The translations under genes were made by a program, and so were the position numbers. The notes under the pieces were generated by a model, which was not told the DNA's origin, ran no database searches, and saw only the letters and a list, made by a program, of their open reading frames with translations. Source: Chrysochromulina tobinii (Eukaryota). Taken from it: 57,418 nucleotides of DNA. This document shows positions 3,630 through 46,719 of the stretch, in pieces; position 1 is the first letter of the stretch, and each line of letters begins with the position of its first letter. The stretch lies in NCBI GenBank assembly GCA_001275005.1, contig JWZX01002380.1, positions 1 through 57,418 on the forward strand, given 5' to 3'.

Positions 3630-3775
3630 CAGCTCACTTCCAGCGCTCCGATGCCGGCTGAGTGCACCTCTGACTGTGCCTGATTGCAGCTCACTTCCAG
3701 CGCTCCGATGCCGGCTGAGTGCACCTCTGATTGCGCCTGATTGCAGCTCACTTCCAGCGCTCCGATGCCGCCTGA
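3630..3775. repeat. 57-bp tandem repeat (about 2.5 copies) duplicating the stop-codon region of the minus-strand ART-like gene, with GCAATCAG/GCACTCAG filler
   Basis: CAGCTCACTTCCAGCGCTCCGATGCCG starts at 3630, 3687 and 3744; the third copy contains the real stop (ASERWK*). Confidence 0.9.
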
Positions 3776-6700
3776 GTGGCGGCCGCCTGGCCGCGCTGGA
3801 TCAGATACTCCTTGAGCAGAGAGGAGTTGGCCGGGGTGCTGGGTAGCGGCGGGGCGCCCCCCTCCCGCGCCTCCCTCGATCTGGAGAGCTCCGTGGGGGC
3901 GCCGAGCTGGGCGCCGCCCTGGATCACGAGGGTGTGTGCATCGGGCGGGGGCCCAAAGGACGGGTGCGTCGCAGGCTGTCCACTCAGCTCGGCGGCCTTT
4001 CGGAACGGGTTGCCCCTGTGCACCCGCCCAGTGAACGCATGCCCTCCGGTGCCATTCGTGCCATTCGTGCCCGAGCGCGCCCCACCCGTCCCACCCGCCA
4101 CACCCGCCGCACCCGCCGTACTCGGACGGACGCGAGCTGGAGCCGTGCTGGGCGCCGAGCGGCTCAGGGGACGGCTCAGAGGTTCGACACTCAGCAGCTC
4201 GCCGAGATTGGCATCGAGATTCGTGTCGAGATTCTCGTCGCTCAGCAGCATGCCGCCGACGCCGCCGGCCGCGGTCGGTGCGCCAACCGGCGTGCAACCA
4301 CGCGCCGTCGTGAGCGCATACGAGCCCGCGGTCGAGCGTTGTCTTGGGCGCGGCAACGGCTCGTCGGGATGGTGGCGGCGGCGTGGGGCCGTCGCGGCCG
4401 TCGCCCAACATGGCGCGGGTACCTCGGCCGGCGGCGGCTCTGGAGGCGGGTAGAGGGCTTGCTGCGAATACGCTTGCTGCTTGTACGCTTGCTGCGCGTA
4501 ATACGTCTGCACGGCTGGCGAGGAGAGCGCCTGCTGCGAGTCAGGGTACATCAGGTGCTGTCCGTGGTACATCGGGTGCAGTCCGGGGTGCGTTGGCTGC
4601 GGCGGTGAGCAGCCGGCGTACCCCTGCGCGTCGCCCAACACAGCGCGCGCGTGCGCCTCAGCCTCTGGCGACGTGTGCTCGTCGGTCCAGTGAGGCTGCG
4701 CTGTGTTGGGCGCGTGGCTGAGCGAGGGCATGGGCGAAGGCGTGGGCAGCGCTGTGTTGGGCAACGGCTGCGCTCCGGCGACGCCGAGCTCATCGGCAGA
4801 TGGCATCTCCCGCGATCTCGCGTGCTCCAACGGCCGATCGTACCGCGGTCGAGCGCCGTCCCGAGCGCCGTCCCTGCCGAGCGAGGCGCCGTACCGAGCA
4901 CCACCCCCGCCCACGACGGTCGAGCGCTCCGGCTCGGCAGGGTCGGCGCTCGTTACGGCGCCCACGCTCGGTACGGCGCTCAGCCCGCCGATGCGTAGGC
5001 AGGCGCACGCGTGCCTCGCCGCCTCGACGGCCTCATGCAGGGCCTCGTTCTCGCTCTGCAGCCGCTCGAGCCGCTTCTCATCCTCCTCGGCCAGCCGACC
5101 GCTCCCCTCCGCATCGGCCGGGTGGACGCCGTCCCGAGCATCAGCGCCGTCCCGAGCACCAGCGCCGTCCCGAGCGTGTAGCACGATCGCTGCGCCGGCG
5201 CTGACCGACTCGCTGTGCACGAGCGTCCTCTCAGACAAGGCCATCGCCTCCTCCGCCGTCGCCATGGCCTTCGACGCCGTCGCCATCGCGTCGCCGGCGC
5301 CCGCCTCCCCCTGTGGAAACGGCGCCTCCCCCTGTGGAAACGGCCACGGACGCACTGCGTCAGCCTCCGCGGCGGCAGCGAGCCCGGCCCGCACCGCCGC
5401 GGCCGCCTCCATTTTGGCACGCACGCTCGAGCCCGCGCTGTGAAGCATCTTGTTCACACGCTCCATGGCCTGGGCCTTGGTCCGGTGCCTGAGGAGCTCG
5501 CCTGTCTGCGACGAGAGCTTGTCGCGTCAGATGCAATCCAGTGGCAATCAGATGTAATCAAGGGGCCATCAGTGGCCCTCACCTGCTTCGATAGCTTGTC
5601 GCGCAGCTCGTTGCGCTCGCGCTCGAGGGCAGCGTTCTTAGCCGCCAAGGCCGCGAGGCCATCGCTCAGCCCTCGCATCTCGCCCATCGCGAGATCGCGC
5701 CGGCGCTCGTATGCGGCGGCCTCGCGCCGCCACGGGCGCCCCGCCTCCTTGGCCCAGCTGGTGCTCACGCCGAGCACAATCACGAGCACCTGCTTCATCC
5801 GATGCAATCCAGTGGCAATCAGATTTAATCCAGTGGCAATCCGATGCAATCAAGTGGCCGAGCACAATCACGAGCACCTGCTTCAAGAGCGTTCATCAGA
5901 TGCAATCCAGTGGCAATCAGATGCAATCATGTGGCCATCAGATGCAATCAAGTGGACGAGCACCTCGCCAGCGTCCATCGCGGGGAAGCTGCTGCCACCG
6001 CCGGCGCCGTCCTGGGCGCTCTCGACGCTGGTCAGGTAGGTGCGCCTGAGGTCGAGCGCGCACACGGGTGGGAAGACCGCATCGGCGCGGCTCTCGTACT
6101 GCGACAACCACGAGATGTCGGCCGCCCGGTCGACGGCGCTTTGCTCGAGCTGCAGCACGGTCTGCGCGCCCGCGACGACGCTCGCAAAGCTCATCGCATG
6201 CTGCCGACTGCTGGTGCAGGCAAGCACGCCCCACTCGACGCCCGCGACGGCGCCCGCCAACGCGGCACCTCCGCTGCCGCTGCTCGTCAACGGGGCGGCG
6301 GTGGCGCCGCCGCTCACCGGCAAGGGCGTCGTGCCGGGCGTGACGAGGGGATGGGACGGTGCCGCGCTGTGTTGGGCGGCGCCTGGCGTCGGCAGGCCAG
6401 CGGCAGGCGGCGCGCGGTACAAGGGTGTCGAGGCCTCCGCGATGCGCCCGAGTTTGCCCAGGCACGCCGCGAGCGTGTGCAGCGTCGCCGGGTACGCGTT
6501 CGCGCGGTTGGTGACCTCAAACGCGCGCGCGAGCTCAGCGGCCGCGCGGCCGAAGCGCGCGGCCGCATACTCGCCCAAGACGGCGCGTCGCTCGTCGGCG
6601 GGCAGCTTGGCGAGGCGCGCCGTGCCGAGCGCGCGCAGCGCCACGTTGTACTTGGCCTGCAGATGCAATCAGATGCAGTCAGGTGCAGTCAGATGCAGTC

Positions 6701-8865
6701 AGATGCAATCAGATGCAATCAGCTGCAGTCAGATGCAGTCAGCTGCACTCAGAGGCACTCAGAGGCACTCAGATGCACTCAGAGGCACTCAGCTGCATTC
6801 AGATGCAATCATCTGCACTCAGCTGCACTCAGCTGCACTCAGACGCAAAAAGCTGCACTCAGAGGCAATCAGCTGCACTCAGTGGCACCTCGCCGCACGG
6901 TCCTGTGAAGAGGCGCGCCGCTGTGAACTCTGCGTCGCTCAGGTTGGACTCGCCGAGTTTTCGTAACCGCACGCCCACGCGCTTGCGCCCCGCGACGAAG
7001 CGCTCAGCACGGCGCGCGAGCGGTTCGCGCGGGAGCCACGCGCCCTTGGGGGCGTGCCCCGTCGCCTGATGAGGGAGGTCATCAGTGGTCATCAGAGGTC
7101 ATCAGGGGTCATCATCATCATTGGGGGCGTGCCCCGTCGCCTGATCGATGGTGGCGGTGGTCATCAGTGGTCATCAGTGGTCATCAGTGGTCATCAGTGG
7201 TCATCAGTGGTCATCAGTGGCCATCAGTGGTCATCAGTGGTCATCAGTGGCCATCAGTGGTCCTCAGTGGTCATCAGTGGTCATCAGTGGTCATCAGTGG
7301 CCACACGCCTGATCAATGGTGGCGATGGGTCGGTACGTCTCCGTCGGCCAAGCTCCCGGCATCAGGCCCAGGCGCTCGCGCGCCGTGTCGAGCGCCTCGC
7401 GGTCCGCCTCCGTCGCGCCTCCGTCGATGCCCCCCTCCATGGTCGGGTCCACCACGAACCACCACTCCACACACGAGGTCGTGTGCACGCCATACGTGCC
7501 CGCGAACACGAGATGCGCATCTGGCCCGCTCGTGTGTTCATGCCGCATCGCCTCGAGGGTCAATACGCCTTCCTCGAGGCCTCCTACGAGCCCGTGGAGC
7601 CCGCTGAAAAAGTCCGACGGCCCACCGAGCACTGAGGCACGCCCGAGGCGCTCGAAGCTCTCCGCCTCAAACTCGCGCGCTGGAACGAAGCGCTTGCGGG
7701 GGCGCGCGCGCGTCAGATGGGACTGTGGAGGCGCCGTGCCGGGCTCGGCCGTTGAGCCGCTGACCTCTTCGGCCACAGACTGCTGTGAAGGCTGCTGTGA
7801 AGGCTGGTGTGAAGGCTGCTGTGAAGACGGCTCCGAGATCGGCTCCGTGGGCTCCTCAGCCGACGAGGCCTCGGCCGCCCCGGCGCCCGGCACGGCGCCC
7901 GGCACGGCGCCCGGCACGGCGCCCGGCACGGCGCGTTGGCGCGCCGCTCGTTCCGCCAGAGCGTGTGCGCGCGCCTCGGCCTGCCCATGCAGCAGCTGGG
8001 CGCGTGCCACCACGCGCTGCGCCACCAGCCCGAGCAGGTCGTCGCCTGCGCCTCCCTCGGTGAGCATGCTCTTGACGAGCGCGCGCGCCGTGCTGAGCGC
8101 CCCCTCGTGCGCGAGCGCGCCGCCGCCGCTTGCGAGCGCGCCGCCGCCGCTTGCGAGCGCGCCGCTGCCGCTTGCGAGCGCGCCGAGTTCTCTCACGAAC
8201 TCCCTCTCGAGCGCACACAGCTGCGCCTCGGCCTTGGCAGGCGCCGGATCGAGCGCGAGGCGCTTCGAGCTGCGCTGGAGATACCGGCGCACGCTCAGCC
8301 GATCGCGAAGCAGCGCGGTGAGCTCGAGGCCCTCCAGCCAAGCACCGAGCTGCCACCGCGCCGGCGAAGCGGCGGCGACCTCGAGCGCAGTCTCGCCAAC
8401 GTAGTCCGACACGGCTCGGAGCTCCGCCTCGGCCGCGGCCGTCGCCCGGCTGACGGCGGCGGTCAGAGACGCCTCCAGTGCCTCCGAGCGCGCTCCGCGG
8501 CCGAGCTCGGCGCGCAGCCGCGCCACCTCTGCGTCGCGCTCGCGCAGCTTCTCCTCGCTCGCGTGCAGCCTGTCCTTGGTCTCGCGCATCTGCCTAGAGA
8601 GCAGCGACTTATCGGAGCGCGCCAGAATCTCCGACAGCTGCTCCTCTTCGACTTCCGGCCTCTTTGGCTTGGCAGCGGGCGCGGCCTGCTGCGGCGCCGC
8701 CTGCGCCGAGCGCAGCTTGATGCGAAGCGACGCATTCTCCGCCTTTATGCTAAGCATCTCCGACAGAGATGTCTTGAGGCTGCTATTCTCCTCGACGAGT
8801 CGCTGGTAAGCCATGTGCAGGCGCTGCAGCTCGTTGACCAGCTCGGTGGCAGTGTCGAGTGACAT
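3748..8865 (-). CDS. About 1463-aa protein: N-terminal coiled coil, degenerate ARTC-type (R-S-E) mono-ADP-ribosyltransferase-like domain, coiled coil and disordered C-terminus
   Basis: Exons 8865-7309, 7065-6889, 6656-5964, 5789-5583, 5505-3748 (all phase 0, frame closes). Motifs FFSGLHGLVG..EAMRHEH..YGVHTTSCVEWWFV, RLFTGP..KYNVALR..NAYPATLH..LYRA..GVEWGVLACTS..DRAADISWLSQY match algal ART-family proteins as I recall them. Confidence 0.75.
5506..5582 (-). other. 77-nt GT-AG intron with CTGATTGC array; acceptor supplied by a copy of the upstream exon end
   Basis: The exon ends GCGACAAGCTATCGAAGCAG|GT and the intron ends GCGACAAGCTCTCGTCGCAG|ACA. Confidence 0.8.
5790..5963 (-). other. 174-nt GT-AG array intron with a 10-nt flanking duplication (AGGTGCTCGT) and an internal copy of acceptor plus exon start
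   Basis: GAG|GTGCTCGT ... CAG|GTGCTCGT; internal copy at about 5857-5886. Confidence 0.8.
6657..6888 (-). other. 232-nt GT-AG intron made almost entirely of 10-mers (CTGAGTGCAG/CTGATTGCAT/CTGACTGCAT)
   Basis: Splicing joins FTGPCGE|AKYNVALR in frame. Confidence 0.85.
7066..7308 (-). other. 243-nt GC-AG array intron containing a copy of its own spliced junction
   Basis: (ACTGATGACC)n arrays flank CGCCACCATCGATCAG-GCGACGGGGCACGCCCCCAA at 7121-7156. Confidence 0.8.
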
Positions 8866-9046
8866 GACGGTTGCGGCCGTTCGTTACATGAAAATTCGGT
8901 CCTCGTATGAGGGGTTACCTGGAGCAGACATCCGTGCTTCAGAAATGTTAGTTCTGACGGGGTCATCAAGTTTCGTTCCGTGCCCGCGCAGGGGCGTCGC
9001 GTTGCGAGACGAGTGCTTGCTTGCGTGAAGCTCCTCTCGGATCCGG

Positions 9047-10180
9047 ATGAGCCGGACTCTGGAGGCTCAGGCAGAGCACGCGCCCCGTGCAAGGTGGCCG
9101 ACCCCCCCAAGTGGAGAGTACGTTCATGATGTGGCATACGACTACTACGGCCAGCGGGTGGCGACGTGTTCTTCCGATAACACGATAAAGATCTTCAACG
9201 AGCACGGTCGCAAGGTTGCCGAGTGGAGAGCGCATGGTGGCTCCATCTGGCGACTCTCGTGGATGCATCCCGAGTTCGGGGTGGCGCTGGCCTCCTGCTC
9301 CTTTGACCGCAAGGTGTGCGTCTGGGAGGACGTGGCCGATGCCGAAGAGGCAGCTGCGCAGCTCGACAGTGCAGCCGGCCGCGTGGCGTGGACACGCACC
9401 GCCGAGCTCGCCGATGCGCGCGACTCGGTGGTGGATGTGCAGTTTGCGCCACACCACCTTGGCGTGCGCCTCGCCTCTTGCAGCATGGACGGATTTGTGC
9501 GCATCCACGAGGCGGCCGACGTGCTCGACTTGTCCACGTGGGAACGGCACTCGGACTTCCATGCGGCGGCCGACACAGCCGCCTCCAAGGAGGGCGCGGG
9601 CGGCGCCGAGGCTGGAGGCGAGGGCGGCTACGCAGGCACCAGTCCTCTTTGCCTGTCTTGGTGCCCTTCGATCGTTGAGAACGAGCCGATGCTCGTGGTC
9701 GGCCTCTCCGACGGCTCTGCAAGGCTCTGGCGAGGCCACGAGAGCAGCTGGTCCTGCGTGCTCAGCCTGGGCCTCGGCGGCGCCCGCTGCCACGCCGACT
9801 GCGTGCGCTCGGTGAGCTGGGCCATGGATGCGGGCCGCTCGTACCAGCTCGTCGCCACAGCGTCGCGCGACCAGACGGTAAAGCTGTGGGCTTTGCGACG
9901 CACATCGGTGGCCGAGGAAGACGATGCCGCGGGCGCTGGGCCCGAGGGCGGCGGAGGCGCTGGCGCCGGTGGCGCCGTTAACCCCCCTGCGGATGCCCTC
10001 GGCGACGGATGGAGCGCAAGGTGCTGCGCCGAGCTGCCGCATCGTTCGCAGGTCTGGCGTGTCTCTTGGAACGCAACCGGATCGATGCTCGCTACGTCGG
10101 AAGATGATGGCACTGTGACCGTCTACCAAATGGACGCAACCGGCGGTTGGCGCTTCGCCAGGCCTGTGGCCTGCCAGTGA
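9047..10180 (+). CDS. SEH1: Nucleoporin/GATOR2 WD40 protein SEH1
   Basis: HDVAYDYYGQRVATCSSD, WMHPEFG..LASCSFDR, DVQFAPHHLG, GRSYQLVATA, VWRVSWNATG; intronless. Confidence 0.9.
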   Translation: MSRTLEAQAEHAPRARWPTPPSGEYVHDVAYDYYGQRVATCSSDNTIKIFNEHGRKVAEWRAHGGSIWRLSWMHPEFGVALASCSFDRKVCVWEDVADAEEAAAQLDSAAGRVAWTRTAELADARDSVVDVQFAPHHLGVRLASCSMDGFVRIHEAADVLDLSTWERHSDFHAAADTAASKEGAGGAEAGGEGGYAGTSPLCLSWCPSIVENEPMLVVGLSDGSARLWRGHESSWSCVLSLGLGGARCHADCVRSVSWAMDAGRSYQLVATASRDQTVKLWALRRTSVAEEDDAAGAGPEGGGGAGAGGAVNPPADALGDGWSARCCAELPHRSQVWRVSWNATGSMLATSEDDGTVTVYQMDATGGWRFARPVACQ

Positions 10181-10266
10181 AGAGCCATTAGTGCCATCAG
10201 TGCCATCAGTGCCATCAGTGCCATCAGTGCCATTAGTGCCAGGCCTGTGGCCTGCCAGTGAAGAGC
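10157..10266. repeat. 29-bp direct duplication spanning the SEH1 stop, flanking a (GTGCCATCA)n 9-mer array
   Basis: GCCAGGCCTGTGGCCTGCCAGTGAAGAGC at 10157-10185 and 10238-10266. Confidence 0.95.
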
Positions 10267-11076
10267 GCTCATACGGAAGCCTCAGCGGAAGCGTGTGGGG
10301 CTCGGCCGGGCTCGACGGCCGGGCTCCCCCCCGCGCTCCCGCGTCCTGCTATTCTCCCGCTAGGATCCCGCCGGCTCCGCCCGCCCCCCCTCTCAGCTTG
10401 GCTCTGGCTGAGCCCAGCGGCTCGGCTCTCCGCGCTCCTTGCGCGACCTAGTGCTGTTCGATCACGGTCTCGACCCGACCCCTGGGCTCCTGATCTCGTG
10501 ATCTGAGATCTCCCCGAAGTCCGATCTCATCCGATCTCGTGGATCTCTGGATCTGGACGGGATGGGTCGCGGTGTTCGGGTGCGTGCGGTGCCCGGGTGC
10601 GTGGTAGCCCTACGGCGTCATACGATACGTAGAAGAAAGTGCGAACTTCGCCCGGCGGGACGCGTTCAAGAAACAGAAACAGCCGCCACCAACACCGAAC
10701 ACGACCTCGGAATCTTCGGAACGGTATACGGTTCAAAACACAAAAGTTCGGGTCGCGGGGCTCGCGATGACCCCATGAACGGTTGGCGTGAAGTCTGAAG
10801 AGCGATTCATATAATCAGTAAATCAACGTTGACGCGAAGGCGAACCCGCGCTAATATCGCAATCCGGTAAAGCGGGACTCGAGCCCAGCGGAGCCGACCC
10901 GGCGCGTTTACCTCACAACTGACAACGCCCACATTACACGCCAGTGACCTAATGTGGTTTGTGAAGTTCGATGTCTTTCCTTCGATCCGCACGGCGTCGC
11001 AGCAAAACCCGAAACCCCTGAGCGGTTTCGGGCATGCATGCCCTCACGCGGCGAGAGTCCTGCTCCGCTGGTGCGC

Positions 11077-11640: not shown

Positions 11641-12399
11641 GGAAGCTTCTTGAGCGTAAGCTTGTTCCCGCGGGGTTGCGCGGCACCGCGACGAGGGGGT
11701 CCAGGTCACAGAGTTAGATTCCGAAGCGACCGAAGCGGTGCGCCTAATTTGGTTAGAGCGACTTCTCCTTCGAGGGGTTTTCGATTTCCCCATTTCCGCA
11801 CAAACGTGCCGCAAAAATACAAACTGATGATTACAGCGGTAATTTGGTCCCAGGAATAGTGCGCGGTGCGTCTACAACACGACGTGTTCTCGTCGTTGCC
11901 TAAAAGCTTTGAGGTTGACCTCGCTCGGGAAAGAATTCCGAATCCCTAATGTTGTTACTGAGTTGGGGTTGGGCGACAGCGTGGTTAGGTGCAGGACAAG
12001 GACTGGTCCAAGCACTCGCGCGGGCCAACTGTAGGAGCCGCTTCGTGGGCGCTTCTGAGGCCAAGTGTGCAAGGATGCGTGCTGGATGTGCCTTAGGATT
12101 CGTGAGATTCATTGGATACCTCATGGGGTATCAGACAATGTAGATAAGTGTTTGTTCGTCATCGGCAACGTGTAGGGGATTGGGTGCAGCGAAGCAGGGA
12201 GCAGACCCGTGGCAACGGCCATGCGAGTTCGAGGCCCGGGTTCACTGTTGCCGTGTTCACAGTTGCCATGCGAGTTCGAGGCCCGGGCAGCTCACCTGTT
12301 CACAGCGACGTCAGCGAAGGTGGCGGGCCGGAGCTAATGAAGTGCGTGATTGGGTCTGATCAGGTCTGACGATGGTGGCGGGCCGGAGCTCATGAAGTA

Positions 12400-14025
12400 T
12401 TAGGTCTGATTAGGTCTGAAGAAGTGCGGCGACGCACAGGCTGAGATGGGGCAGAAGACCGAATCCACTCGCATGCCGTCCTCAACGGCCTCGGCCTGCC
12501 TGTCAGCACCGGTAAGGGCTTCGTCACCTGTAACGGCTTCGTCAGCCTTGGCCAGCGATGGTGCCGGCGAGCGTGGTGTAGGCTCGAGCGAGGCGACGGA
12601 CGAGTCAGTGGCAGACCAGCCGCACACAAGCCCACGCCAGCGCGTGAGGCGCCGTCCCTCGGCATCCAACGAAGGTTTTAGCCGTTGCCGCTCCATTCCC
12701 GCGCTCCACGGCGCGATTCGACTGGCAGCGGGAGGCTCCCCCCCAGAACTCATGGCTGCTTGGCGCACAGCGTAGCTGCGTGCTTTGCCCACAGCGCGCA
12801 GCACGCGATCGCGCGTCAGCAGCCGCAGCCCCATCGCGGCCAAGTCGGCGGTCCCCAGCTTCACGGCGGCGTCGAGGGAGGTCACTCCGGCACGCTCGAG
12901 AGCCTCAATGGACGGCCGGTCGACCCCGAGCAGACTCAGTAGCGCCGCGAACGAGTCGGGTTGATAGCTCGAGGCGGCCGTGTCCACTGGGCGCTCGCGG
13001 GCGGGCGACGCAAAGGGCGACGAGCCAGGTGACGGTCTCGGCGAGGCGTGCACAGAGGAAGCTCGGAATGTGCTGGAATGTGCCCGATACGACGCGTCGA
13101 ACGAGGCGCTGCGAACGAGGCGCCGCCGCGCCGGGCTCGGGGCGTCGGGGCGTGCGTGAAGCATCGTGTCCAGACTCAGGACGCTCCCACGAAAGTTGCC
13201 CGTCGGCCCGGCGTTGCGCCACGTCTTCGGCAACGGCCTCTCGGCCTCGGCGACGGCGGCGGCGGCGGCGCGAGCGGAGGCGACAGCGGCGGCGGCCTCG
13301 ACGGCGGCGGCGACGGCGGCGGCGGCGGCGGTTCCAGCGGCACAGCTGCTGCTGCCTCCATTGCCGCCGGCGCTCACGGAAGCCACAGCGTAGCTGCCGA
13401 GCTTGGCGGCCGGCGGCGGCTTGCTGCGGATCGCCGTGCGTGAGGCAGACGCGTGCGGCCGCGCGTACCAGGGTGGCGACGCGTCTGCTCGCGTGTTGGT
13501 CACCTCACGGTGTCGGCATTCCTCGTCCCAGAGCGCGCGCAGCCGCGCAGACTCGACGGCACCCTCCGCGTGCAGCCGACTCCAAAGGGTCTGATTGGGC
13601 GCTTGCATGGCCTCCGACAAGATGGCGTCATCCACCACGACTGACAGGTCGAGTATTGGCATCCGCAGCGCAGGCGGCGGAGGCGGCGGAGGTGCAGGTG
13701 GCTTGGGAGTCGGCTGTCGCACGCCGATCACCTCCATCAGGGATGGCCCCTGCCGGGGCGAGAACTCAGCCGAATTCGCCAGCTTTGCAGGCGTGTAGCC
13801 TGTTGAGAGCAGGTGCTGGGCGATGGCGGAGATCTGAACAGCTGGCATGATCTCCGGCGTTTTCGAAAATGGCATAAAATGGGATGAAATGGCATGATCT
13901 CCGGCGTCGGGCGTCGAGGCCTCGCACTCGAGCCGTTTGCGATGACTTCGCTCCTGCGCATATCGGCGCTCCTCCTCCTCTTGTTGGCGCACGTGTGAGG
14001 CCAGAGCTGACACGTCGCCTGCCAT
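12400..14025 (-). CDS. Low-complexity protein with a SAM-like domain
   Basis: Long ORF from MAGDV; FAALLSLLGVDRPSIEALERAGVTSLDAAVKLGTADLAAMGLRLLTRDRVLRAV fits the SAM pattern. Confidence 0.65.
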   Translation of the reverse strand: MAGDVSALASHVRQQEEEERRYAQERSHRKRLECEASTPDAGDHAISSHFMPFSKTPEIMPAVQISAIAQHLLSTGYTPAKLANSAEFSPRQGPSLMEVIGVRQPTPKPPAPPPPPPPALRMPILDLSVVVDDAILSEAMQAPNQTLWSRLHAEGAVESARLRALWDEECRHREVTNTRADASPPWYARPHASASRTAIRSKPPPAAKLGSYAVASVSAGGNGGSSSCAAGTAAAAAVAAAVEAAAAVASARAAAAAVAEAERPLPKTWRNAGPTGNFRGSVLSLDTMLHARPDAPSPARRRLVRSASFDASYRAHSSTFRASSVHASPRPSPGSSPFASPARERPVDTAASSYQPDSFAALLSLLGVDRPSIEALERAGVTSLDAAVKLGTADLAAMGLRLLTRDRVLRAVGKARSYAVRQAAMSSGGEPPAASRIAPWSAGMERQRLKPSLDAEGRRLTRWRGLVCGWSATDSSVASLEPTPRSPAPSLAKADEAVTGDEALTGADRQAEAVEDGMRVDSVFCPISACASPHFFRPNQT

Positions 14026-14187
14026 AATCGTTCCTTCGAAGAAACGACCTCGAAGAAATGTCGTTTCTTCACAGCAACACAACAAAACGGCGGCCTGCAC
14101 ACTGGCGCTCCGTCGCCAACCGCGCTACCGGTACGCGTACTGTACACACAAAACGATTCGTGATTGGCACTGAAGCCGCTGGGCGCC

Positions 14188-19671: not shown

Positions 19672-19732
19672 CGATCGGCACGTCTTCGGATTGTGAACAA
19701 GACTGTGAACACAGTAGATTGATCGAAAAAAA

Positions 19733-29166: not shown

Positions 29167-31491
29167 ATGTTGACCCAGCGAGCCATACCGCACGTGCAGC
29201 CGCTGCTGCCCTCTGGTGCCTCCACCAGCCCGGGCGCAACGCGGCTCGCCGTCTCGGAGAGCATGCACGTCATCCTCGTCGCCAAAGGCCATGCCATCGA
29301 CTGCTTTGACCTTCAGATGTCCTTCCTATGCACGGCCCGGTTGCCTTCGCCGGCTGTCGAGCTGAGGTTTTCGCCGCACGACTCTAGCCTCCTCGCTGTC
29401 GGGACGGCTGCCGGCGATCTGCTCCTGATGCGCCTCCGCCGGGCGCCAGCGGATGGGCAGCTCGTGCTCTTCCACATCTTGCAACAGTGGAGCATGCGAC
29501 CCGACGCGGCTCCGCTGACGGCCGCCGCGCCGGCCGATGTCGTGCGCTTCCACCCGTCACGTGACGACCTCCTCGCAGTCGTCTGCAGTGGCCAAGTGCG
29601 CCTCCTCAGCCACGGCCTTGGCAAGCTCGCGATCTCTTCGCCTTGCTGCCGTGTGGATGACGACGGCGCTCACGACGGCGCCATCGCCACGACGATCACC
29701 TGGTGCGGCTCGCTGCTCGCTGTGGGCCGCGCGAGCGGCGCCGTGCACCTGTGGCGCGTCGACGTGCCGCAGCGCTCCGACACACGAGCGGGCCTCGCGC
29801 TCGAACTGTCCCTCGGGGCGCAAACTCTCGTGAGCGCACTCCCAGCGCCTCCCACACGTTCGTCAGGCTCGTCAGGCTCGTCAGGGGTGCGCTGCCTCCG
29901 CTGGATGCCCTCTGATATCGAGGGGGAGGCCGAGGGCTCCGCGGGCGTGCTTCTCGTCGGCGACGAACCCAGCCGACTGCGAGCCTTCCTGCTGCCCTCT
30001 GCATGGTCCACCTCGGCCCATGGAGCCAACGGCGCTCAGTTGCTGGCCAACTTGCCTACTGGTCCTCTGCCCGGCGCGAGCGCCTTGGCGCACGTGAGCG
30101 AGCCACTCACGCTGGGTGCGCACATCGGCGGCGAGCTGCGCGCGACCATCGCGCTCTCCGAATGTGACGAATCTCGGCGGCCGGACGATGTGACGAAACT
30201 TCGCACCTTCGAGGTGAGCCACCCTCGCTGGCTTCTGCTATCCGGGCCGGGCTCGCCATGCCTCTTCGCGATGCCCTACGGCCAGCCGACGACGGCGGAC
30301 GCGCATCCCGCCCAACACGACGCGCATCATCCCGCCGCCGCGGCGGTACGCTTTCCGACGCCGACGGAATTGCTGTGCGCGCCCAACGTCGTCCTCGAGC
30401 CGCCGCCGTGCCACGTGTACGGCCTGCACCGGATCGCCTCTCGCGACTGCCGTGCCCGGGTCCATGCACGGATGATGGCCTCGACAGAGAGCCTGGCGGA
30501 GCCCGACACGGCGCCCAAGATGCCCGACACGGCGTCCATGAAGCCCGACACGGCGCCGACCCATCTTGGAGAAGGCACGGAGCTGCTGCTCGTGTTGAGC
30601 GACGTCGCGCTCCATGTCGTCCAACTGCGCGCGGACCCGGCGGGCATGCTCACGACGGCGCGCCACGCGTCCGAGCCGACCGAAGGGCCCAAGCTGAAGC
30701 CCAAGATGCCCGGCACGGCGCCACCGCTGGGGCGCGCGCCGCCGCCGCCGCCGCCGCCCGCACGTCCAGAGAAGCCGTACCCACAGCCGCTGGTCGCCCA
30801 CCTGCTACCCGCCGCGCCTCGTCGGCCAGAGGGGCCCACGACGGCGCCCGTAACGGCCGGCCGTGAGGCGTCGGCGCGGCCGGTTGTGCCCACGACGGCG
30901 CCCGTAACGGCCGGCCGTGAGGCGTCGGCGGTCGTCGACACCCACGACGGGCTCGTCCCCGGGTCGAATGCTGCCCTGCTCGCTCAGGTGACGAGCTGAT
31001 GGCCCCCGATTGCATGCTGATTGCGCCCGATTGCATGCTGATTGCCCCCCGATTGCATGCTGATTGCGCCCTATTCGAATCTGCTCGCGAAGGTGGCGGC
31101 TCTGGAAGCGCGCGCGCGCGGTGCAGAGGCCCGCGTCGCCGAGCTCCAAACCTCCTTCGATCTCTTCATGGCGCAGAGCCAGCAGCAGCAACAGCTCCTG
31201 CTGGTGGCGCTCGAGACGGCGCTCGAGAAGATGGCTGCCGAGCGCCGTCTCGGGCGCCTCTCCGCCGTCGGGGCGGCACAGGGAAGTGCACCCTACGACT
31301 CCGAAGCGTTTGCATTCACACCTCCTGGGTCCCGCCAGCGGCAGGGGCGCCCACCTGAGGCGTCGTCGTGGGCGGCCTTGGATTCGTCTGACGATTCAGA
31401 GCTGTCGCCATCGGATGCGTCGAACGAGTCGGAGCCGACGTCGGCGCCCATCTCCCCCACGCCCGTCGCGCGCATGCAAAATGCACGCTAA
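29167..31491 (+). CDS. WD40-like beta-propeller protein with a Pro-rich linker and C-terminal coiled coil
   Basis: ELRFSPHDSSLLAVGTAAGD, VRFHPSRDDLLAV, ITWCGSLLAVGRASGAVHLW; exons 29167-30987 and 31093-31491. Confidence 0.7.
30988..31092 (+). other. 105-nt array intron (CTGATTGC/CCGATTGCATG); acceptor from a degenerate copy of the upstream exon end
   Basis: CTGCTCGCTCAG|GTGACG ... CTGCTCGCGAAG|GTGGCG. Confidence 0.75.
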
Positions 31492-35000: not shown

Positions 35001-35614
35001 CACATTGAGAAAGTAGGGCGAGTCTCCAAGAGGGGCTGCCCCCTCCGAGCTACGGAAGAAGATGACGAGACGGCCCGAACGGACGGGCTGGAAGATGGCG
35101 CGGTAGGTGCCATCTCCGAGGCTCGAGATCCAAACGGCCACGTGGTCCTCGCCCGGGACGGCGTCTGCACGGAGCCCAGCCGCGGAGCTCACGACGACGA
35201 TCTCCACAGGGGAGATCGTGCCGCCCCCGCCGTTGCCGCCGTTGCCGCCGCCGCCGCCGCCGCCGCTTGCTCGCGGCTTGGAGGAGATGCGATTGCCGAA
35301 GCGATCACAGGCGCTGATGAGGAGTTCCTGACGCTCACCTGGGTTGACGAAGCTCATGAGTGGCAATCAATGACAATCAAGGGCAATCAAGGACATTCAA
35401 GGACCATCCTGGCGCTCACCTGCGATGGCGGTGCCCAAGCGCAGGCAGTCGCCGGTGAGGGTACAGTGCTCGGGCGACGGGGCGGCCGGTGAGACGAAAA
35501 TCGACGCCGGCGAGCCAGTGACGTCTACCCCGCCGTCGTCATCCACTAGAGCCGCCTCTCCACACAAACGATCAGTCCGCTGGCCGCCGTCGCCGCCGCC
35601 CTGCTCTCCTGGCA

Positions 35615-35654
<40 letters not shown>

Positions 35655-38600
35655 CTGCTCGCCTGGCACAGCTCCACGGTAGAGCTGCACCCGAAGCTCA
35701 TACGCCCCTGCCACCTCGCAGCACAGGCTCAGCTCATAGAGGCCAGCACGCACCTGATGAGGATGGTCATCATAAGTCATCAGTGGTCATCAGTGGTCAT
35801 CAGTGGTCATCAGCACAGGCTGAGCTCGTAGAGGCCAGCACGCACGTGGCGGATCGTCGGTGGCGGCAGCTCGGCACCTCGACGCCCGCTGAGCGACGCG
35901 CCGAAGTGAGCGCCTTCCGAAAGCGAGCACTCCACCCCCGCCGCGCTGCGTGCGATGACCTTGAAGTTGAGCGGTGTGCCTGCCACTGCACGGAGACGCC
36001 CGCCAGGTCGGGGGGTCGAAGAGCCTGCGCTCGCGCCCGCGACGGCGCCGTCGTCGATGCTGTTGCTGCTGCCGGCGCAGTCGCTGCTGGCGGTCGTGTC
36101 GAGAATGCACATGCGCGCCTCGACCGCCACCTTCTTTGCGCGCCTGCTGGCCGGCTTGGGCGAGCGACACAGCGCGGACCGCGCCGACTGGGTGCCACAG
36201 AGCACCAGCGTATGAGCGCCGCCGCATGCGACGCCGATGACCCTTACGGGCTCGACTACGTCGCCATCCTCTGTAGGCGCGCTCGAGGGGCGTTCTCGGC
36301 CTGGAGGTTCTCGATCTCGGGAGACCTCCATGCCGAGATCGAGGCCGAGATCGAGGCCGAGATCGAGGCCGAGATCGAGGCCCTCGAGAAAGGGGAGCGC
36401 CACACCTGCATGCAATCAGCACGCAATCAGCACGCAATCGAGGCCCTCGAGAAAGGTCCGCCCGGCACACCTCGCATCTCACTCGCAGCATCGCGCTCCA
36501 CCTTGGCGCCGCCGCCGCCGCCGCTGCTCGCCGCCACCGTACCGGTGCCGGTACGTAACGGTCGGCTGCCACCGGTAACCACAATGGCACCGGACGCGCG
36601 CGTGTGAGGCGTGGCAAGGCGCGCGGCCGCCTGCACGGTCGCGTGCATGGCGGCGGTTGGCTGGTCGAGTGGCTGATCGGACCCAAGGCGCCCTGAGCAC
36701 GACCTCCCCCATGAGATCACTCGGCCTGTGCGTGTCAAGGCGACCATGTGGTCCTCCGCACACGCCACCTCGGCTAAGGGATACGCCTCGACCGCCTCGA
36801 CAAGGCGTGGCTCGAGCTCATCGCCGCGCTGCGTGCCATGCCCGCATTGGTTCCAGGATCCACCTGGTGCGGCAATCAGTGGCAATCAGTGGCGATCAGT
36901 GGCAATCAGTGGCCATCAGTGGCCATCAGTGGCCATCAGTGGCAATCAGTTGGCAATTAGTGGCAATCAGTGGCAATCAGTGGCAATCAGTGGCAATCAT
37001 AGACAGGGCTTGGTCAGAGGCACTCAGTGGCAATCAAAGGCCACCGAGGCAATCAACGACACTCACTTCCCCAAGTCCATAACTGTCCCGCCTCGTCGAT
37101 GCACGCCGTGCACGCGCCGCCGCATGCAATCATCTGCACGCGCACGCCGGCAAGCGGCCCCAGCACCAACCGCGGCATGCGCTCGGAGCTGTTCAAGCCG
37201 TGCCCGAGTCGGCCATACCTGCATGCACAATCAGAGAGGCCATTAGCATGCCACATCAGCCATTAGCATGCACAATCAGAGGGAGGCGCCATCAGCATGC
37301 ACCATCAGCGAGGCCAGCATGCACAATCAGAGGGAGGCGCCATCAGCATGCACCATCAGCGAGGCCAGCATGCACAATCAGAGGGATGCCATCAGGGAGG
37401 TCATCAGCGAGGCCAGCATGCACAATCAGAGGGATGCCATCAGGGAGGTCATCAGCGAGGCCAGCATGCACAATCAGGGATGCCATCAGGAAGGTCATCA
37501 GAGAAGACACCAGCGAGGCCATCAGGGAGGCCATCACGCAGACCATCGGCAACCTATCAGCACGCAATCAGCACGCAATCGGCACGCAATCAGCACGCAA
37601 TCGGCACGCAATCAGCACGCAATCGGCACGCAATCAGCACGCAATCAGCACGCAATCAGCACGCAATCAGCACACAATCAGCACGTAATCAGCACGTAAT
37701 CAGCACACAATCAGCACGCAATCAGCACGCAATCAGCACGCAATCAGCATGCAATCACTCATACCTCCCCTCGCCCCAGGTGTACACGACGCCCTCATCG
37801 CGGGAGAGCGCGCAGCTGTGATAGTTGCCACAGGCGATCGCGCTACAGGCGACGCTCGCGAGCTCCGCCACGGAACTGGGCGTGAATACGTCGTGTGGCG
37901 CACGGACGGACGTCAATGTGAACACGTCGTGCCCATTTGGCGCGGCGACGCGCGGCTGCTCCTGCTCGGTGCCCAGCACAGCGCTCGATGGCCGCTCGTG
38001 CACGCTGCCCAGCCCGAGCTGCCCGAGCTCGCCCGCGCCGCACGCGAGTACAGCGCCCGGGCGCGAGAGGAAGAGCGTGTGCGCGAAGCCGCACGCGACC
38101 GCCACGACGCGAGTGCCGCTCAGCGCCGACAACATCTCCGGCCTGAGCACCAGATCGTCGTCGGCTGGCGTGCCGAGGCCCAGCTGTCCGTTGCTGTTGG
38201 AGCCGCACGCTAGGACGCGGCCGCGCGAGGTGCAAAAGACCGTGTGCTTCGCGCCGCACGCGACGCCCGCCAGCCGCTGCCCGTCGCACCCGATCGCTTC
38301 GGGCGTCATTCTCACGATCTTGTCCCCCATCCCAAGCTGCCCGTGCGCATTGTTGCCCCAGGCATGGGCGACGCCTTCCTCGTCGATGGCGACCGAATGG
38401 CTCGAGCCGGCCGCGATCAGGCGCACGCGGATGCCGCTCGTAAACATTGACCGAAGCGGCCGTGGCGCCGCACGCTCGACGCTGTCGCCCAGTCCGAGCT
38501 GCCCGTTGCCGTTCCAGCCAAAGGCAAAGCACAGACCGTCAGGAGATGCGGAGCTGCTCCACTCCTCACTGCGCTGTGGCGGAGGCGGAGGTAGCGCTGC

Positions 38601-40879: not shown

Positions 40880-43051
40880 ATGGGCAGTAGTAGCAGCACG
40901 CCGAGTACTCCGGCAAAGGTGCTCCCGAGCCCACGGCAGTCGCTTCCGAGTCCACGGCTGGCTCCACCTCCGAGTCCAAGGCGGGCTCCACTACCGTCCG
41001 AAAGCAGCAGCAGCAGCAAGGCTGGAGCGCCGCCGCCGACGACGACTCCGCGGCTGGCCCCGCAGGAACTGCTCCTGCGGCTCGAGGGGCCAAAACTCGA
41101 GGCCCCACTCGAGCGGCTCTCCATTGCCGAGCTCCGTATCTTCATCGAGGTGGCCGAGCTCCCTATGCCGGAGGGCAAGCTCGAAAAGGCCGACTTGGTG
41201 ACTCGCGCGAGGTGTCTCGGACCGCTAAATGGCCTGCGGCCAGCGCAGCTCAAGCGGCTGATTGAGGCGACGGCGCACGAGCACTCCGGCTGCGTCGAGA
41301 AGGCCGAGCTGATCGCGTGCCTGCTCGCGGCCATCGAGGCCGGAGGCAAGGCGACGCGGGAGCGGCCCGTGACGGACGAGCACGGACTCGAGCCCGGCAA
41401 GAGTAACTTTCGTCTGGCGGCGCAGGAATGGAGCGAGCGCGAGCGCGAGCTGGCCGACGAGATGGCCGCGCGCGCGCGCACGGCGGCCGAGCGCTACCGT
41501 ACCGAAGAGACGCTCAAGGCGCGCGCGATGCTCGCAGCTGCCGAGGTGGAAGAGCAAAAGGAGGCCGAGGAGCGCGAGGCGGCGGCGGCGGAGAGGCGCT
41601 GGCTGCAGGAGCGCAAGGTGCTGCTGCAAGTGGAGGCAGCTAACCAACAGGTCAAGCTGCTCGAGAAGCGCCTCGCCCTCTAATGACCTCTAATGACCTC
41701 TAATGACCTCTGATGACGCCCTTGATTGCCTCCCTCATCAGGTCAAGCTGCTCGAGAAGCGCCTCGCCCTCGAGCATGAGCAGCAGAAGCGTCAGGCCGC
41801 CGAGCGCGATCATCTCGAGGCGAAGCTTCGAGAGGCGACCCAGGCTACTGTGAGGGCGCATGCCTCGGAGGCAGCCCACGCGGCCGAGTCGCAGATTACG
41901 CGCCTGCAGCTCGAGGACAACCAGCGCCAGATGGAGCAGCTGCAGGTGTGGATCCGGCGCTCCAAGGAGGGCCGCCTGATGACCTCTGATGACCTCTGAT
42001 GACCTCTGATGACGCCCTTGATTGCCTCCCTCATCAGGCCGAGCTGCACACGCTCCAGAAGCAGCATGAGCTCGAGAAGGAGATCTTGATCTCCTCCGCC
42101 AAGATTGCCGAGCAGCAGCAGCAGCAGGAGCAGGAGCAGCAGCAGGAGCAGGAGGAGCGGCTGCGCAGGAATGCGCCCTCGGAGCCGCCGCCGACGCCGC
42201 CCGCGTCGAAGCAGCAGCACCTGCTTCAGCTCCTGGCGGCGGGCCCTGCGCGTCCGAGGGCGGCTTCTCGTGACTCGGTGGCTTCCACTGCGGCGGCGAC
42301 CCCCGTGGCCACCAGCGCGGGGCCGTCAAAGTACTACAGCGACGAAGAGGAGGCGATGATGGCCTTGTACGCCGAGGCGGACCAGGCCGATCCGGAACGG
42401 GTGGATGAGGACGAGGCCGAGGCATTTGCGTCCCATCGACGTGCCATTGACGCCCTGGCCGCTGCGGCGACGCCTGCGCTCGATGCCCTGGCCGCATCCG
42501 CACCGAGGGGGCTGACAGGGGGGGGCGACACAGGGGGGGGCGACACAGGGGGGGTCGTGTCGCCCTCGTCTCGTGTGCAAGCACTGCTCAGCGAAACAGC
42601 CCCCGAGGGTACCTGGTCCGCCGTGCCGCACGCCCAGCAGCCGCCCAGCACGGCGCCGCTTGGCCTCGCCCAACTCGGCGCCCGGCCCAACACGACGCTC
42701 GGGGTGAGCCGGGGCTCGATGGACAGCGGCGCGCTCCTGAATCGAGGCGCCCAACACGGTGCCCAGCACGGCGCCGGGGGCGAGCCGCTGCCGAATACGA
42801 AGCAGCGCGTCGAGGCCGCGCTCGAAGCGCTCTACCGTAAGAACGGGGGTGAGGCGCCTGGGCTCCTGCTGCAGCAAGTTCGCATCCCGAACTCGCGCAT
42901 CCAACGGTTCCCCCGTCCAGGTGAGCCGCTCAGTACGGCGCTCAGCCCTCCGGACGCGGCGCTGCCGGTGACGTCGACTCTCTTGAGGGGCCTTGCCGCG
43001 TGGCCCTCGCCGTCGCCGGCCTCGCGGATGCCCTTGCCGGCCGAGCTATGA
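40880..43051 (+). CDS. About 662-aa coiled-coil protein with two SAP/HeH-like motifs
   Basis: LSIAELRIFI...LEKADLV and LRPAQLKRLI...GCVEKAELI; exons 40880-41650, 41742-41945, 42038-43051 (phase 0). Confidence 0.7.
41651..41741 (+). other. 91-nt intron: perfect 33-bp flanking duplication, (TAATGACCTC)n array and shared 3' terminus
   Basis: CAGGTCAAGCTGCTCGAGAAGCGCCTCGCCCTC at 41648-41680 and 41739-41771. Confidence 0.9.
41946..42037 (+). other. 92-nt array intron whose last 39 nt are identical to those of the preceding intron
   Basis: 41999-42037 equals 41703-41741. Confidence 0.85.
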
Positions 43052-44036: not shown

Positions 44037-46719
44037 CTACTCGCCGCGCGACCCTCGCGGTGTGCCTGAGCTCGTTGAGGAAGGCGACGCTCCGCCTAAC
44101 GCTCCGCCGGCGGCCTCGTCGTCAGGCCAAAGTAGCCATGCGACGAGGATGGTGACGTTGTCCATCGAGCCGCTGTCCATCGCCTTGCGCATGAGCGCGC
44201 GCGCCGCCGCGAGCGCGCTGCCGTGGCCGTCGACGTCCCCTCCGGGGGGAGGGGGATGCACTACGCCGCGCCCTCGCGCCGCGGTGCATGCAATCTGGAC
44301 AGCCTGCGAGTCATCGACCACATCCCACAGCCCATCGCTGGCCATGATGAGGAGCCGATCGTGCGGTGAGAGTTCGTGTGAGAGGACCTCGGGCTCGTGC
44401 GACACGAGGGGCACGCTTGTGCACCTCTTGAGCTCCCGGTTACCTGATGAGAGGGGCAATCAGACGTCATCAGAGCGAGGAGGGAGGCAATCAGACGTCA
44501 TCACGGTGGCCCTCTTGAGCTCCCGGTCACCGAAGGCGCGGCTGATGGCAAGCATGGTCGACGTGCAATCAAGGGCGTCATCAGAGGTCATCAGAGGTCA
44601 TCACCGAAGGCGCGGCTGATGGCAAGCATGGTCGACGTGCCCGGTGGACCGGTGACCCGCCAGCAGCCGTTAATCGAGCGAACAAAGCCGCCCGACGCGC
44701 GCACGCGCTCCGCCTCCTTGGGCAGGTCTGGCTTATGGTCGACGCTCAGCCGATGCGCTTCAAGCTCACGCTCACGCATCGAGCGGCCCGAGTTGCCGCT
44801 GAAGCGCGCGTGCGGCGCCGCCGGTTTGCGTCCGAGCACCGCGCGCGTGTCGCCGCAGTTGGCGACATCGAGGGTCGTCCCGCGCAGCAGGGCGCAGAGC
44901 ACGGTCGTGCCGTCCGTGAGCACCTTGCGTGTCGCGAGCTCGAGGAAGTCGGTGTCGACCTGTTTAACGCAGATGCACTCAGAAGCACTCAGAAGCACTC
45001 AGAAGCACTCGGATGCACTCAGAAGCACGCAGATGCACTCGGATGCACTCAGAAGCACGCAGATGCACTCGGATGCACTCAGATGCACTCAGGGCTCATC
45101 AGAGGGTCCTGCTCGACCTGTTTGAACGCCAACGTGAAGGCGCGAGAGACCGCCTCCGCCGGCACGGCCGCAAGGTCCAAAGTGGGTGGCGCTGTGGTGG
45201 GCACGGCCGCAAGGTCCAAAGTGGGTGGCGCTGTGGTGGGCGCGGGGCCCTCCGACGTGTCTGGAGGCGGCGGGAGCGCGGCAGGCGGCAGAGCGGCAGG
45301 CGGCGGGAGCGCGGCAGGCGGCGGAGCGGCAGGCGGCGGCGGAGCGGCAGGCGGCGACGCGACATGTGGCGCTGTGGTGGGCGCCAGAGAGCGGTATGTG
45401 AGCGCGGGCGCGTCGTCATCCAGCGAGCCCCGAAGCTCAGCGACCACTGCGGCTTCGGCCGCTGCCTCCGCCGTCGCCTCCGCCGCCGCCGCCTCATGCG
45501 TCAGCATGCATGTGCTCAAAACGGCGCCTCGACCACGGCGCGCATCGAAAGCGTCATCCAGCCATGCCGGAGCGTCGTGGTGAGCGTCATGGTCGAAGGC
45601 AGTGATCTCGTCCGCCTCGGGTGCAGCGCCAGGGCCTGCTGCGGCTCCTGCTGCGGCTCCTGCTGCTGCTGCGGCTCCTGCTGCGGCTGCGGCTGCGGCT
45701 GCGGCTGCGGCTGCGGCTCCTGCTGCGGCTGCTGCGGCGGCGGCGGCGGCGGCTTCTGCTGGTGGTGGTTCCGCTGCTGCTGCTTCTGTTGGCGCCGCCG
45801 CCGCTGCTGGCGCCGTTGCCGCCGCTGCCTGCTGCTGCTGCCGCTTCTTGCGCTCGCCTTTGCGCTCTTTCCACGCCTGCCAGGCGCCCTCGCCGTCAGT
45901 CGACTCGGGCTCCGTCTCGGTCACGTCATCCTCTGCCTCGACGGCACCACTGCCGCGCCGAGCCGCACTCGCACGGCGCGCATCGAAAGCGCCCTCCAGC
46001 CATGCCGGAGCGCGGCCACTCGCGGCCAAACCCGAAGGCTCACTCTCCATTTGAGACGGCGGCGCCGACGATCGCGGCGCCGACGACCGCGGCTCGCCCT
46101 GGGTGCGGCTCCACCAGCAACCAGGGCGCGTAGCAACCAGGTGCTGCTGGTGGAGCAGCTCGGCGGCAAGTGCAGCCACCAGGCGCCGCGGCAGCTGTGC
46201 CTTCGCGAAGTCGCAGCAGTTGATGCCGCCGTGCCCGTCGAGCACGCTCAGGTACGAGGCACCCTCAAGGCCAGCGTGCAGCTCGCCCAGGTTGGCGACG
46301 ACATCGTGCCGGTCCTCCATGTACGGCCGCCTGCCTTGAGCTTCGACGACAGCCCACGCGAGGCGCGGGCCCGCCGAAGCGTCGGCGGCGGCGCCAGGCG
46401 TGGAGGGCAGTGGTCCAGCAGCAGCTGCAGCGGCGGCGGGCGCGGAGGCCTGGGGCTCGCTCGAGGGAGCGGGTGCGTCACCCGACGGGGAGCAGCGCAG
46501 AAGCTTACGCGCACGCATCTGGCTGGAGCTCCCCGCCGGCGTGGGGCCGGCATGATCGAATCGAGCCGCTGTCACGTCAGCCAGTGAACGTGCGGGCTGC
46601 TCAGCGCCAGTCTCCTCAAGCTCCTCGGCAAAGGAGAGCAACAAGCCGGCTTTGCGCGCCTTGAGCTTGGGCCTGGTGACAGCTGGTGCCGTTGTGGCGC
46701 CAGCCATGCTCGCTTCCAT
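44037..46719 (-). CDS. PP2C/PPM-family Ser/Thr phosphatase with a large low-complexity insertion (about 787 aa)
   Basis: QGRRPYMED, DGHGG, GTT, VANCGDTRAVL, LSVDHKP, LAISRAFG, IMASDGLWDV, GSMDNVTI; exons 46719-45118, 44959-44605, 44443-44037. Confidence 0.92.
44444..44604 (-). other. 161-nt array intron containing a 56-nt copy of its spliced junction
   Basis: 44511-44566 joins the upstream exon end to the downstream exon start. Confidence 0.85.
44960..45117 (-). other. 158-nt (CTGAGTGCAT/CTGAGTGCTT)n intron with flanking duplication
   Basis: GCGTTCAAACAG|GTCGA ... GCGTTAAACAG|GTCGA. Confidence 0.85.

Follow-up and report, generated by a model that had tools for sequence, protein, structure and literature searches.

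Arrays of short tandem repeats, with units of 9-11 nucleotides (nt), are found in genes of contig JWZX01002380.1 from Chrysochromulina tobinii, which is 57,418 nt long and is here called the window. On one strand the units read CTRAY, the U2 branch-point motif, or a close variant of it, and an array is called sense when this strand is the coding strand and inverted when it is the opposite one. We consider it reasonably probable that orientation sorts the fate of these insertions, sense copies being spliced as new introns and inverted copies being kept in frame or past a stop codon, and that they originate by templated end-joining. The part about the two routes is firmer than the part about the enzymes.

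The window consists of GC-rich eukaryotic DNA (59-69% GC) from a haptophyte, and the closest named homologues of two tested proteins are found in the haptophytes Prymnesium parvum (53%) and Haptolina brevifila (30%). The sample was enlarged by a metagenome scan seeded with the commonest array unit. This gave at least 126 loci, of which seven were removed as duplicates and 119 (with labels of the type L001) were retained. Together with the window they comprise 686 kb and contain 658 arrays, across which the cores CTGATGAC (1396 occurrences) and CTGATTGC (593) are common. Viral contigs gave 0 matches to the array pattern.

Orientation of the Arrays

The orientation of each array was called from the coding strand of the flanking DNA as given by a codon model. 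Sense-only flanks were found for 474 arrays and inverted-only flanks for 30, three were mixed, and 151 had no coding call. Adjacent arrays have the same orientation in 226 cases and opposite orientations in eight. The polarity is strong and well beyond chance, but it is not strict. The original prediction postulated strict polarity, and what stands of it is that 474 of the 504 one-strand calls are sense and that intronic arrays are nearly all CTRAY-sense; the 30 inverted calls, including nine inside open reading frames (ORFs), contradict the strictness. Its suggestion that insertions arise in both orientations is supported; the inverted copies have the same anatomy as the sense ones. Some of the 30 calls are false. 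L004:11284 and L009:166 reflect sense arrays whose tail was read in reverse, and others are unrelated coding repeats.

A frame-preserving and stop-free read-through between coding segments is found for only 2 of 201 evaluable sense clusters, versus 10 of 13 inverted ones. Six of these ten carry the family cores. The other four (L017, L027, L051, and window 29862-29884) lack them and were rejected as family members, since they appear to be ordinary coding repeats. The one in the window is an in-frame 9-nt repeat in plus-strand coding sequence, with CTGAC on the other strand and no duplication.

The two strands of the arrays differ markedly in composition. Per nt, AG has a frequency of 0.017 and stop codons of 0.128 on the CTRAY strand, while the corresponding values for the inverted strand are 0.137 and 0.016, meaning that the former is about eightfold poorer in AG and eightfold richer in stops. 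Stops occur in all three sense frames in 528 of the 658 arrays, and 624 have a stop-free inverted frame. Being full of stops and having few AG, a sense copy would be spliced or lost, while an inverted copy is translatable.

Inverted Arrays in Coding Sequence and at Gene Ends

According to the original claim, coding regions retain arrays in the branch-point orientation only. This is not the case: nine inverted family arrays are found stop-free and in frame inside ORFs (Table 1), and for four of these the strand is confirmed by Pfam. These four carry the commonest family cores, and two of them have flanking duplications of 21-24 nt. Five of the nine have a clean adjacent duplication and add 48, 84, 78, 72, and 48 nt, all multiples of three. 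For reference, the added length modulo three is 0, 1, and 2 in 98, 71, and 92, respectively, of all 261 duplication-flanked clusters. The L034 insert encodes 28 residues of an adenylation-domain protein, and these recur in the relatives P0023 and P0024 (80-88% identity). P0023 carries the 28-residue unit twice, similar to the doubled 57-nt unit at 3630 described below. The L014 peptide is kept in P0012 and P0013; P0014 is without it and has an entirely different linker. The inverted copies in ORFs are likely to be translated.

Inverted arrays are also found at gene ends. Two such structures had been described as reading ATCAG/CTCAG on the sense strand, and this was borne out; in both the stop codon lies within the duplication and the array follows it within about 5 nt. 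At 3630-3775 the TGA (3748-3750) of a minus-strand ORF is followed by two 57-nt units that read ATCAG/CTCAG. The gene ending here, gene A, has no Pfam match, and its strand is given by the codon model and a spliced ORF of 1463 amino acids. At 10157-10266 the stop codon within the 29-nt duplication is TGA 10178-10180 of a WD40 gene on the plus strand, identified by Pfam. The array begins 5 nt later, has a unit of 9 nt, not 10/11 nt, and reads ATCAG on the sense strand.

The RNA evidence consists of low-depth contigs from RNA runs. RNA contigs 9009-10219 and 10204-10691/10812, which come from two runs, enter the array at 10157 from both sides. At 3630 the ends of the RNA contigs coincide with the ends of DNA contigs, and one RNA contig holds insertion-specific letters. 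Both structures look retained in RNA, with the reservation that such low-depth contigs may include carried-over DNA. Splicing-out of the 3630 structure, which on paper is possible by exact excision on the gene strand, was rejected because of the insertion-specific letters in the RNA contig. Antisense splicing at 10157, using the minus-strand CAG/GC in the duplication, is likewise unsupported, as the RNA contigs enter the array unbroken.

A third inverted array, absent from the original prediction, is found at 12330-12420. Its unit is without the family 8-mer cores, and its membership in the family is uncertain. The gene ends are not inverted-only, as a sense array that does not allow exact excision also persists near a stop codon (L053:10001). 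Close to the third array, the RNA contig X14 record 23 covers 12296-12537 and continues with 169 more letters; the minus strand reads GTGAGC from 12295, which suggests an ordinary intron of the 3' untranslated region leftwards of this position.

Predicted Array Introns of the Window

In the window 23 array introns were modelled in six genes, 20 of them in four minus-strand genes and three in two plus-strand genes. The cuts were set by eye, and one acceptor of gene A was moved by 4 nt (from 5502 to 5506) to restore the frame. Pfam gave the strand for the permease, RCC1, and PP2C genes, and the codon model for the other three. After the predicted cuts, each of five genes is a continuous ORF that ends in its only stop (1463, 739, 1560, 662, and 804 amino acids), and the permease gene has 519 codons and 0 internal stops. 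The ORF is restored for all 23 predicted introns, and homologues are contiguous over two of them, exactly at one and roughly at the other. For permease intron 23586-23776, the alignments of five homologues run to 23777 and continue at 23585 without skipping a residue, giving independent support for this intron. At 22789-23036 the homologues jump from approximately 23019-23031 to 22791. Gaps in the RNA-contig coverage over the gene A introns are evidence neither way.

All 23 introns read CTGAT, CTAAT, CTGAG, or TTGAT on the sense strand, as had been described apart from the TTGAT variant. CTRAY/CTGAG cores are commoner on the sense strand than on the other strand in 22 of them (e.g., 35:0, 19:0, 4:1), while the intron at 35339-35419 has no strict core and contains sense TTGAT units only. 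The introns are not independent of each other, and when the chance is estimated by gene, six of six genes are sense (p about 0.016, one-sided). The 474:30 count in the larger sample removes the doubt about chance. A strict CTRAY with its A at most 33 nt from the 3' end is present in 21 of the 23, the other two having no strict CTRAY near the acceptor. The expectation that retained introns would carry premature stops agrees with the models, since 22 introns contain an in-frame stop and the remaining one shifts the frame. That TGA should occur in all frames is true only in part: stops are found in all three frames in 19 introns and in two frames in four.

Table 1. Inverted arrays and predicted array introns. 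Positions refer to the window unless preceded by a locus label.
Feature	Position	Strand	Remarks
Inverted array with duplication, two 57-nt units	3630-3775	CTGAG/CTGAT on +	Just past TGA 3748-3750 of minus-strand gene
Inverted 9-nt array between two perfect 29-nt copies	10157-10266	CTGAT on -	81 nt added
Third inverted array, 18-nt duplication	12315-12420 (array 12330-12420)	+	Minus-strand ORF 12400-14124 now stops inside
Inverted array in ORF	L034:4387		766 amino acids, AMP-binding; Pfam
Inverted array in ORF	L035:8387		686 amino acids, ankyrin; Pfam
Inverted array in ORF	L014:1213		638 amino acids, TIR; Pfam
Inverted array in ORF	L034:9903		Methyltransf_32; Pfam
Inverted arrays in ORFs	L006:989, L035:2934, L068:8819, L096:439, L126:292		Without Pfam support
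Gene A (8865-3748) intron	5506-5582	-	Predicted, GT-AG, 77 nt; 1463-amino-acid ORF needs this acceptor
Gene A compound intron, two arrays	5790-5963	-	Predicted
Gene A array intron	6657-6888	-	Predicted
Gene A compound intron	7066-7308	-	Predicted; GC donor, two insertions at one site
Amino-acid permease compound intron	22789-23036	-	Predicted
Permease compound intron	23586-23776	-	Later insertion duplicated about 40 nt of exon end and donor
Array intron, gene 29167-31386	30988-31092	+	Predicted
RCC1-repeat gene (38666 downward, 1560 amino acids), twelve introns	32419-37764	-	Predicted; one ORF, one terminal stop
RCC1-repeat gene, first six introns	37219-37764, 36864-37066, 36406-36470, 35754-35845, 35339-35419, 34778-34967	-	Predicted
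RCC1-repeat gene, last six introns	34545-34651, 34233-34360 (GC donor), 33607-33741, 33066-33148, 32833-33001, 32419-32541	-	Predicted
Array intron	41651-41741	+	Predicted; GT donor from 33-nt duplication, AG from array tail
Array intron	41946-42037	+	Predicted; 3' module same as in 41651-41741
PP2C gene compound intron	44444-44604	-	Predicted; later insertion duplicated about 39 nt of exon end and donor
PP2C gene array intron	44960-45117	-	Predicted; CTGAG units, nearest strict CTRAY 140 nt from acceptor

The PP2C motif (44425-44570, minus strand) reads RAFGN after the predicted splice, and the intronic copy of the duplication encodes a D there. This D is presumably the conserved residue at this position of the motif. 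The PP2C gene may be decaying, or it may be spliced otherwise than predicted.

Anatomy of the Insertions

A typical insertion consists of a duplication, an array of 9-11-nt units that often ends in a CCCTCATCAG or TTGCATGCAG tail, and then the duplication again. Direct duplications flank 261 clusters and have a median length of 28 nt (quartiles 20-35, 5th-95th percentile 15-46); the filter demanded a score of at least 13, and short duplications are invisible to it. The two copies are still identical in 133 of 251 cases. The inserts are 33-152 nt long and the unit type varies.

On the CTRAY strand, 169 of the 261 clusters (130 GT and 39 GC) can be excised exactly at GT/GC-AG sites, versus 83 on the other strand. 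Many of the 92 that do not allow such excision we tentatively read as later insertions into existing introns. Often the duplicated start of the exon provides the donor and the tail of the insert the acceptor, a CATCAG tail being found at 64 of 251 3' junctions and lacking at 187. In a second class the end of the exon and its existing donor have been duplicated, and the new array is placed inside the old intron (23677-23806, 44527-44640). Microhomology between junction and repeat is 1.8 nt (n = 158) and 2.1 nt (n = 106) versus 0.3 nt in shifted controls, a figure that is inflated where the duplication extends into a resident array. Direct repeats over the splice sites combined with junction microhomology are the marks of break repair, and both are found here.

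A short CTGATGA...TCATCAG inverted pair (7 bp) closes many inserts, and there is no other terminal inverted repeat. The copies are not similar from end to end, their 5' ends being the locus-specific duplicated exon, and the target duplication is neither fixed nor short. The junctions inspected show no poly(A) tail. No stable hairpin was found, the folds of five out of five sequences being no stronger than those of shuffled ones (z from -1.07 to 1.21). Compound arrays change length fast: L012:793 and L054 come from two strains of about 98% identity, and one of them has three more copies of a 56-nt intronic module than the other (168 nt).

Distribution and Proposed Mechanism of Insertion

A distance of at least 350 nt to coding DNA on both sides is found for only 5 of 455 clusters, versus 11.2% of random positions. 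This is an approximately tenfold depletion, for which selection alone would not account, and three of the five resemble introns. Sixty of 93 gene models are without any array, versus 42 expected (chi2/df 2.25). Arrays resemble neighbours within 2 kb more than they resemble distant arrays, the unit similarity being 0.111, 0.083, 0.051, and 0.062 with rising distance and 0.048 between loci. The depletion and the clustering indicate that insertion is tied to gene bodies, probably with local spread; random insertion should have let both orientations accumulate in neutral DNA, which is not seen. The depletion, the likeness of neighbours, and the junction microhomology point to a local templated insertion. 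GC content (0.674 vs 0.667) and CpG (1.17 vs 1.16) are alike in genes that carry arrays and genes that do not. Introners of the Micromonas/Aureococcus type are reportedly targeted to nucleosome linkers. In the small sample available here, 169 sites displayed no CpG periodicity or peak, and the exon lengths (n = 125) had no clear period.

According to the mechanism that we propose, a break or a pair of nicks in a gene body would be repaired by synthesis on an existing array, preferably one within about 2 kb, with 1-6 nt of microhomology serving to prime it. The synthesis would stutter over the units and rejoin about 28 nt upstream, whereby the target becomes duplicated. A sense copy would bring TGA/TAA in all frames and be kept in only two situations: either it can be excised exactly, with GT or GC taken from the duplication and AG from the tail or the duplication, or it landed inside an existing intron. 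The 10/11-nt period would always leave a CTRAY-like unit 10-40 nt before the acceptor. An inverted copy would offer no such intron but usually a stop-free frame, and would be kept only where the addition is of 3n bases and falls in a tolerant loop, or where it lies after a stop. We prefer DNA-templated end-joining at staggered breaks over RNA templating.

Several points weigh against this account. The approximately 35-fold excess of sense arrays may need a mutational bias in addition to selection. The 92 non-excisable clusters and the inflation of the microhomology figure count here too, as do the three of 13 inverted clusters that are not read-through (L009:166, L024:608, L042:13346). Four of the nine arrays in ORFs are without a clean adjacent duplication: one adds 117 nt, L126:292 adds 141 nt as judged from a match of only 8 nt, the best duplication at L034:9903 is a 12-nt match with a mismatch, perhaps due to chance, that gives 182 nt and not a multiple of three, and L014:1213 has no detectable duplication. 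The strand call of L096 is weak. Translation of the inverted copies is judged from ORFs and database gene calls. RNA junctions for array introns were not seen in the low-depth RNA contigs, and none of the pieces listed for these contigs spans the gene A introns. The metagenome loci are a mixture of strains, perhaps of species, and were seeded by a single unit type. Finally, no empty allele was found: the strain pairs L034/L039 and L012/L054 share their arrays, the sole differences being in how many copies of a unit or module they have, and the insert is present in all relatives of the L034 protein. Insertion is for this reason read from the duplications.

The chief alternative explanation of the polarity is that it is mainly mutational. 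An RNA template, either an excised intron or a nascent transcript, would be copied back into its own or a nearby gene by reverse transcriptase or RNA-templated repair, mostly in the sense orientation, and selection would only trim the outcome. The confinement of the arrays to gene bodies, their clustering in some genes, their likeness within 2 kb, and the acceptor-like CATCAG tail at a quarter of the 3' junctions would all be accounted for, and long variable duplications fit target-primed insertion. However, inverted copies with the same anatomy exist, the remaining junctions are without the tail, microhomology is equally strong at the 5' and 3' junctions, and the inserts have no poly(A) at the junctions inspected. 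Neither a reverse-transcriptase gene nor a full-length source element was seen, although no systematic search for them was made. We regard RNA templating as rather unlikely to be the main cause. A bolder reading is that introns give rise to further introns in cis: array introns, perhaps in the form of RNA, would template repairs in their own gene and duplicate about 28 nt of exon, and the reversed product would give new stop-free protein loops. This is a tentative idea that we would place on the doubtful side; if true, new introns would arise without a transposon, and one process would yield both introns and coding sequence, sorted by strand.

A telomere-like origin of the arrays was rejected, as the 686 kb contain a single TTAGGG-type tract, a short inverted pair at L052:1600, and the array units are unlike it.

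Possible Role of the Branch-Point Motif

In its strict form, the original prediction says that place and orientation of insertion are random and that only the U2 branch-point orientation survives in coding regions. The uniform orientation of the 23 window introns, the 474 of 504 sense calls, and the 21 introns with a strict CTRAY close to the 3' end agree with this. The clause on coding regions nevertheless fails because of the nine inverted arrays in ORFs, and arrays are scarce off coding DNA, where both orientations should accumulate. Strict CTRAY was moreover found in none of the three array-free introns examined in the window. Sequence alone cannot credit the branch point, because CTRAY, the acceptor tail, the scarcity of AG, and the stop content all follow the same strand, and as the cause of the polarity the branch point is not supported over the other three. 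No match to U2 or to any Rfam family was obtained in the 137,560 bases scanned (the window and 4 of the 126 loci). In this form the prediction seems very unlikely to be correct.

Relation to Known Systems

The array family works like an introner in that many similar introns are found at unrelated sites (658 arrays with few common cores), but it has neither fixed ends nor a fixed short duplication (10.1101/2020.10.14.339549; 10.1101/2022.06.06.494994; PMC12130899). The introner-like elements of Symbiodinium and Polarella glacialis have fixed duplications of 3-8 nt, and those of Symbiodinium have inverted repeats (10.1101/2020.10.14.339549). They share with the arrays that one splice site comes from the target duplication and the other is carried, and that there are classes with one orientation or a biased one. 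The arrays differ from them in their variable duplications of 15-46 nt, their variable body of 9-11-nt units, and the occurrence of the reverse orientation as in-frame coding sequence. Introners in a metagenome-assembled genome of Chrysochromulina sp. have a 4-bp duplication, carry the 5' site, and co-opt the 3' site (10.1101/2022.06.06.494994, Fig. 2C legend). These are also from a haptophyte and combine a duplication with one co-opted splice site and no terminal inverted repeats, while in the present arrays the donor usually stems from the duplication of about 28 nt. The family lists of that survey could include the array family.

That the arrays are classical introners, i.e., non-autonomous DNA transposons with defined ends that form an intron in one orientation, is highly improbable. 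The division of the splice sites between duplication and insert, the orientation bias, and the inverted pair closing many inserts are as one would expect from such elements, but the duplications are long and variable where those described are fixed and short, unit and insert length vary, and the inserts fold no better than shuffled sequences.

Intron gain by double-strand-break repair, as described for Daphnia, Drosophila, and Aspergillus, leaves direct repeats over the splice sites and 1-6 nt of microhomology (PMC3020277). There the inserted material is described as exogenous or free DNA and the repeats as short, whereas here a single repeat family has been employed hundreds of times, copying is local, and existing donors have been hit repeatedly. 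Replitrons, for which one haptophyte locus is mentioned (PMC10288648), were rejected because their anatomy is not similar. Our searches found no literature on the array family or its orientation; supplements of the introner surveys and subscription papers were outside their scope.

The genome of the haptophyte Emiliania huxleyi is said to contain 10-11-bp tandem repeats in introns and frequent GC donors. We know of no description of a target duplication, an orientation rule, or translated inverted copies for these repeats.

That the inverted in-frame cases are artefacts of wrong strand, dead genes, or coding microsatellites is scarcely credible, for although four of the ten read-through inverted clusters are without family cores and some calls are sense tails read backwards, four cases have both family cores and a Pfam-confirmed strand, two of these have flanking duplications, and the peptides recur in other sequence clusters.

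The origin of new spliceosomal introns has been a question for a long time, and where mass gains are proven, transposons with fixed ends are mostly involved. The arrays provide hundreds of young introns whose footprints are long and can still be read, and the orientation that was rejected is likely to be visible as translated inserts. The split between mutation and selection can therefore be counted in one genome, and the arrays constitute a natural test of the minimal spliceable insertion (donor, AG tail, branch point, and AG-poor body). They are also a warning, as gene callers will misread such arrays.

Other Repeats

GATCTC-rich short repeats are found at 10487-10554 and 22973-23033, as well as in other introns and loci, and possibly represent a second repeat family. 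The plus-strand gene at 1143-2300 contains long repeats of 10 residues (Pfam Decapeptide, E 2.6e-90) with periods of 30, 66, and 96 nt. The microsatellites (GTCAA)n and (CACT)25 are located at 24546-24714, upstream of the permease gene. A tandem coding block of about 1.7 kb is shared by two loci (L060:6641-8388 and L069) with 82-88% identity, and occurs in both orientations in L069.

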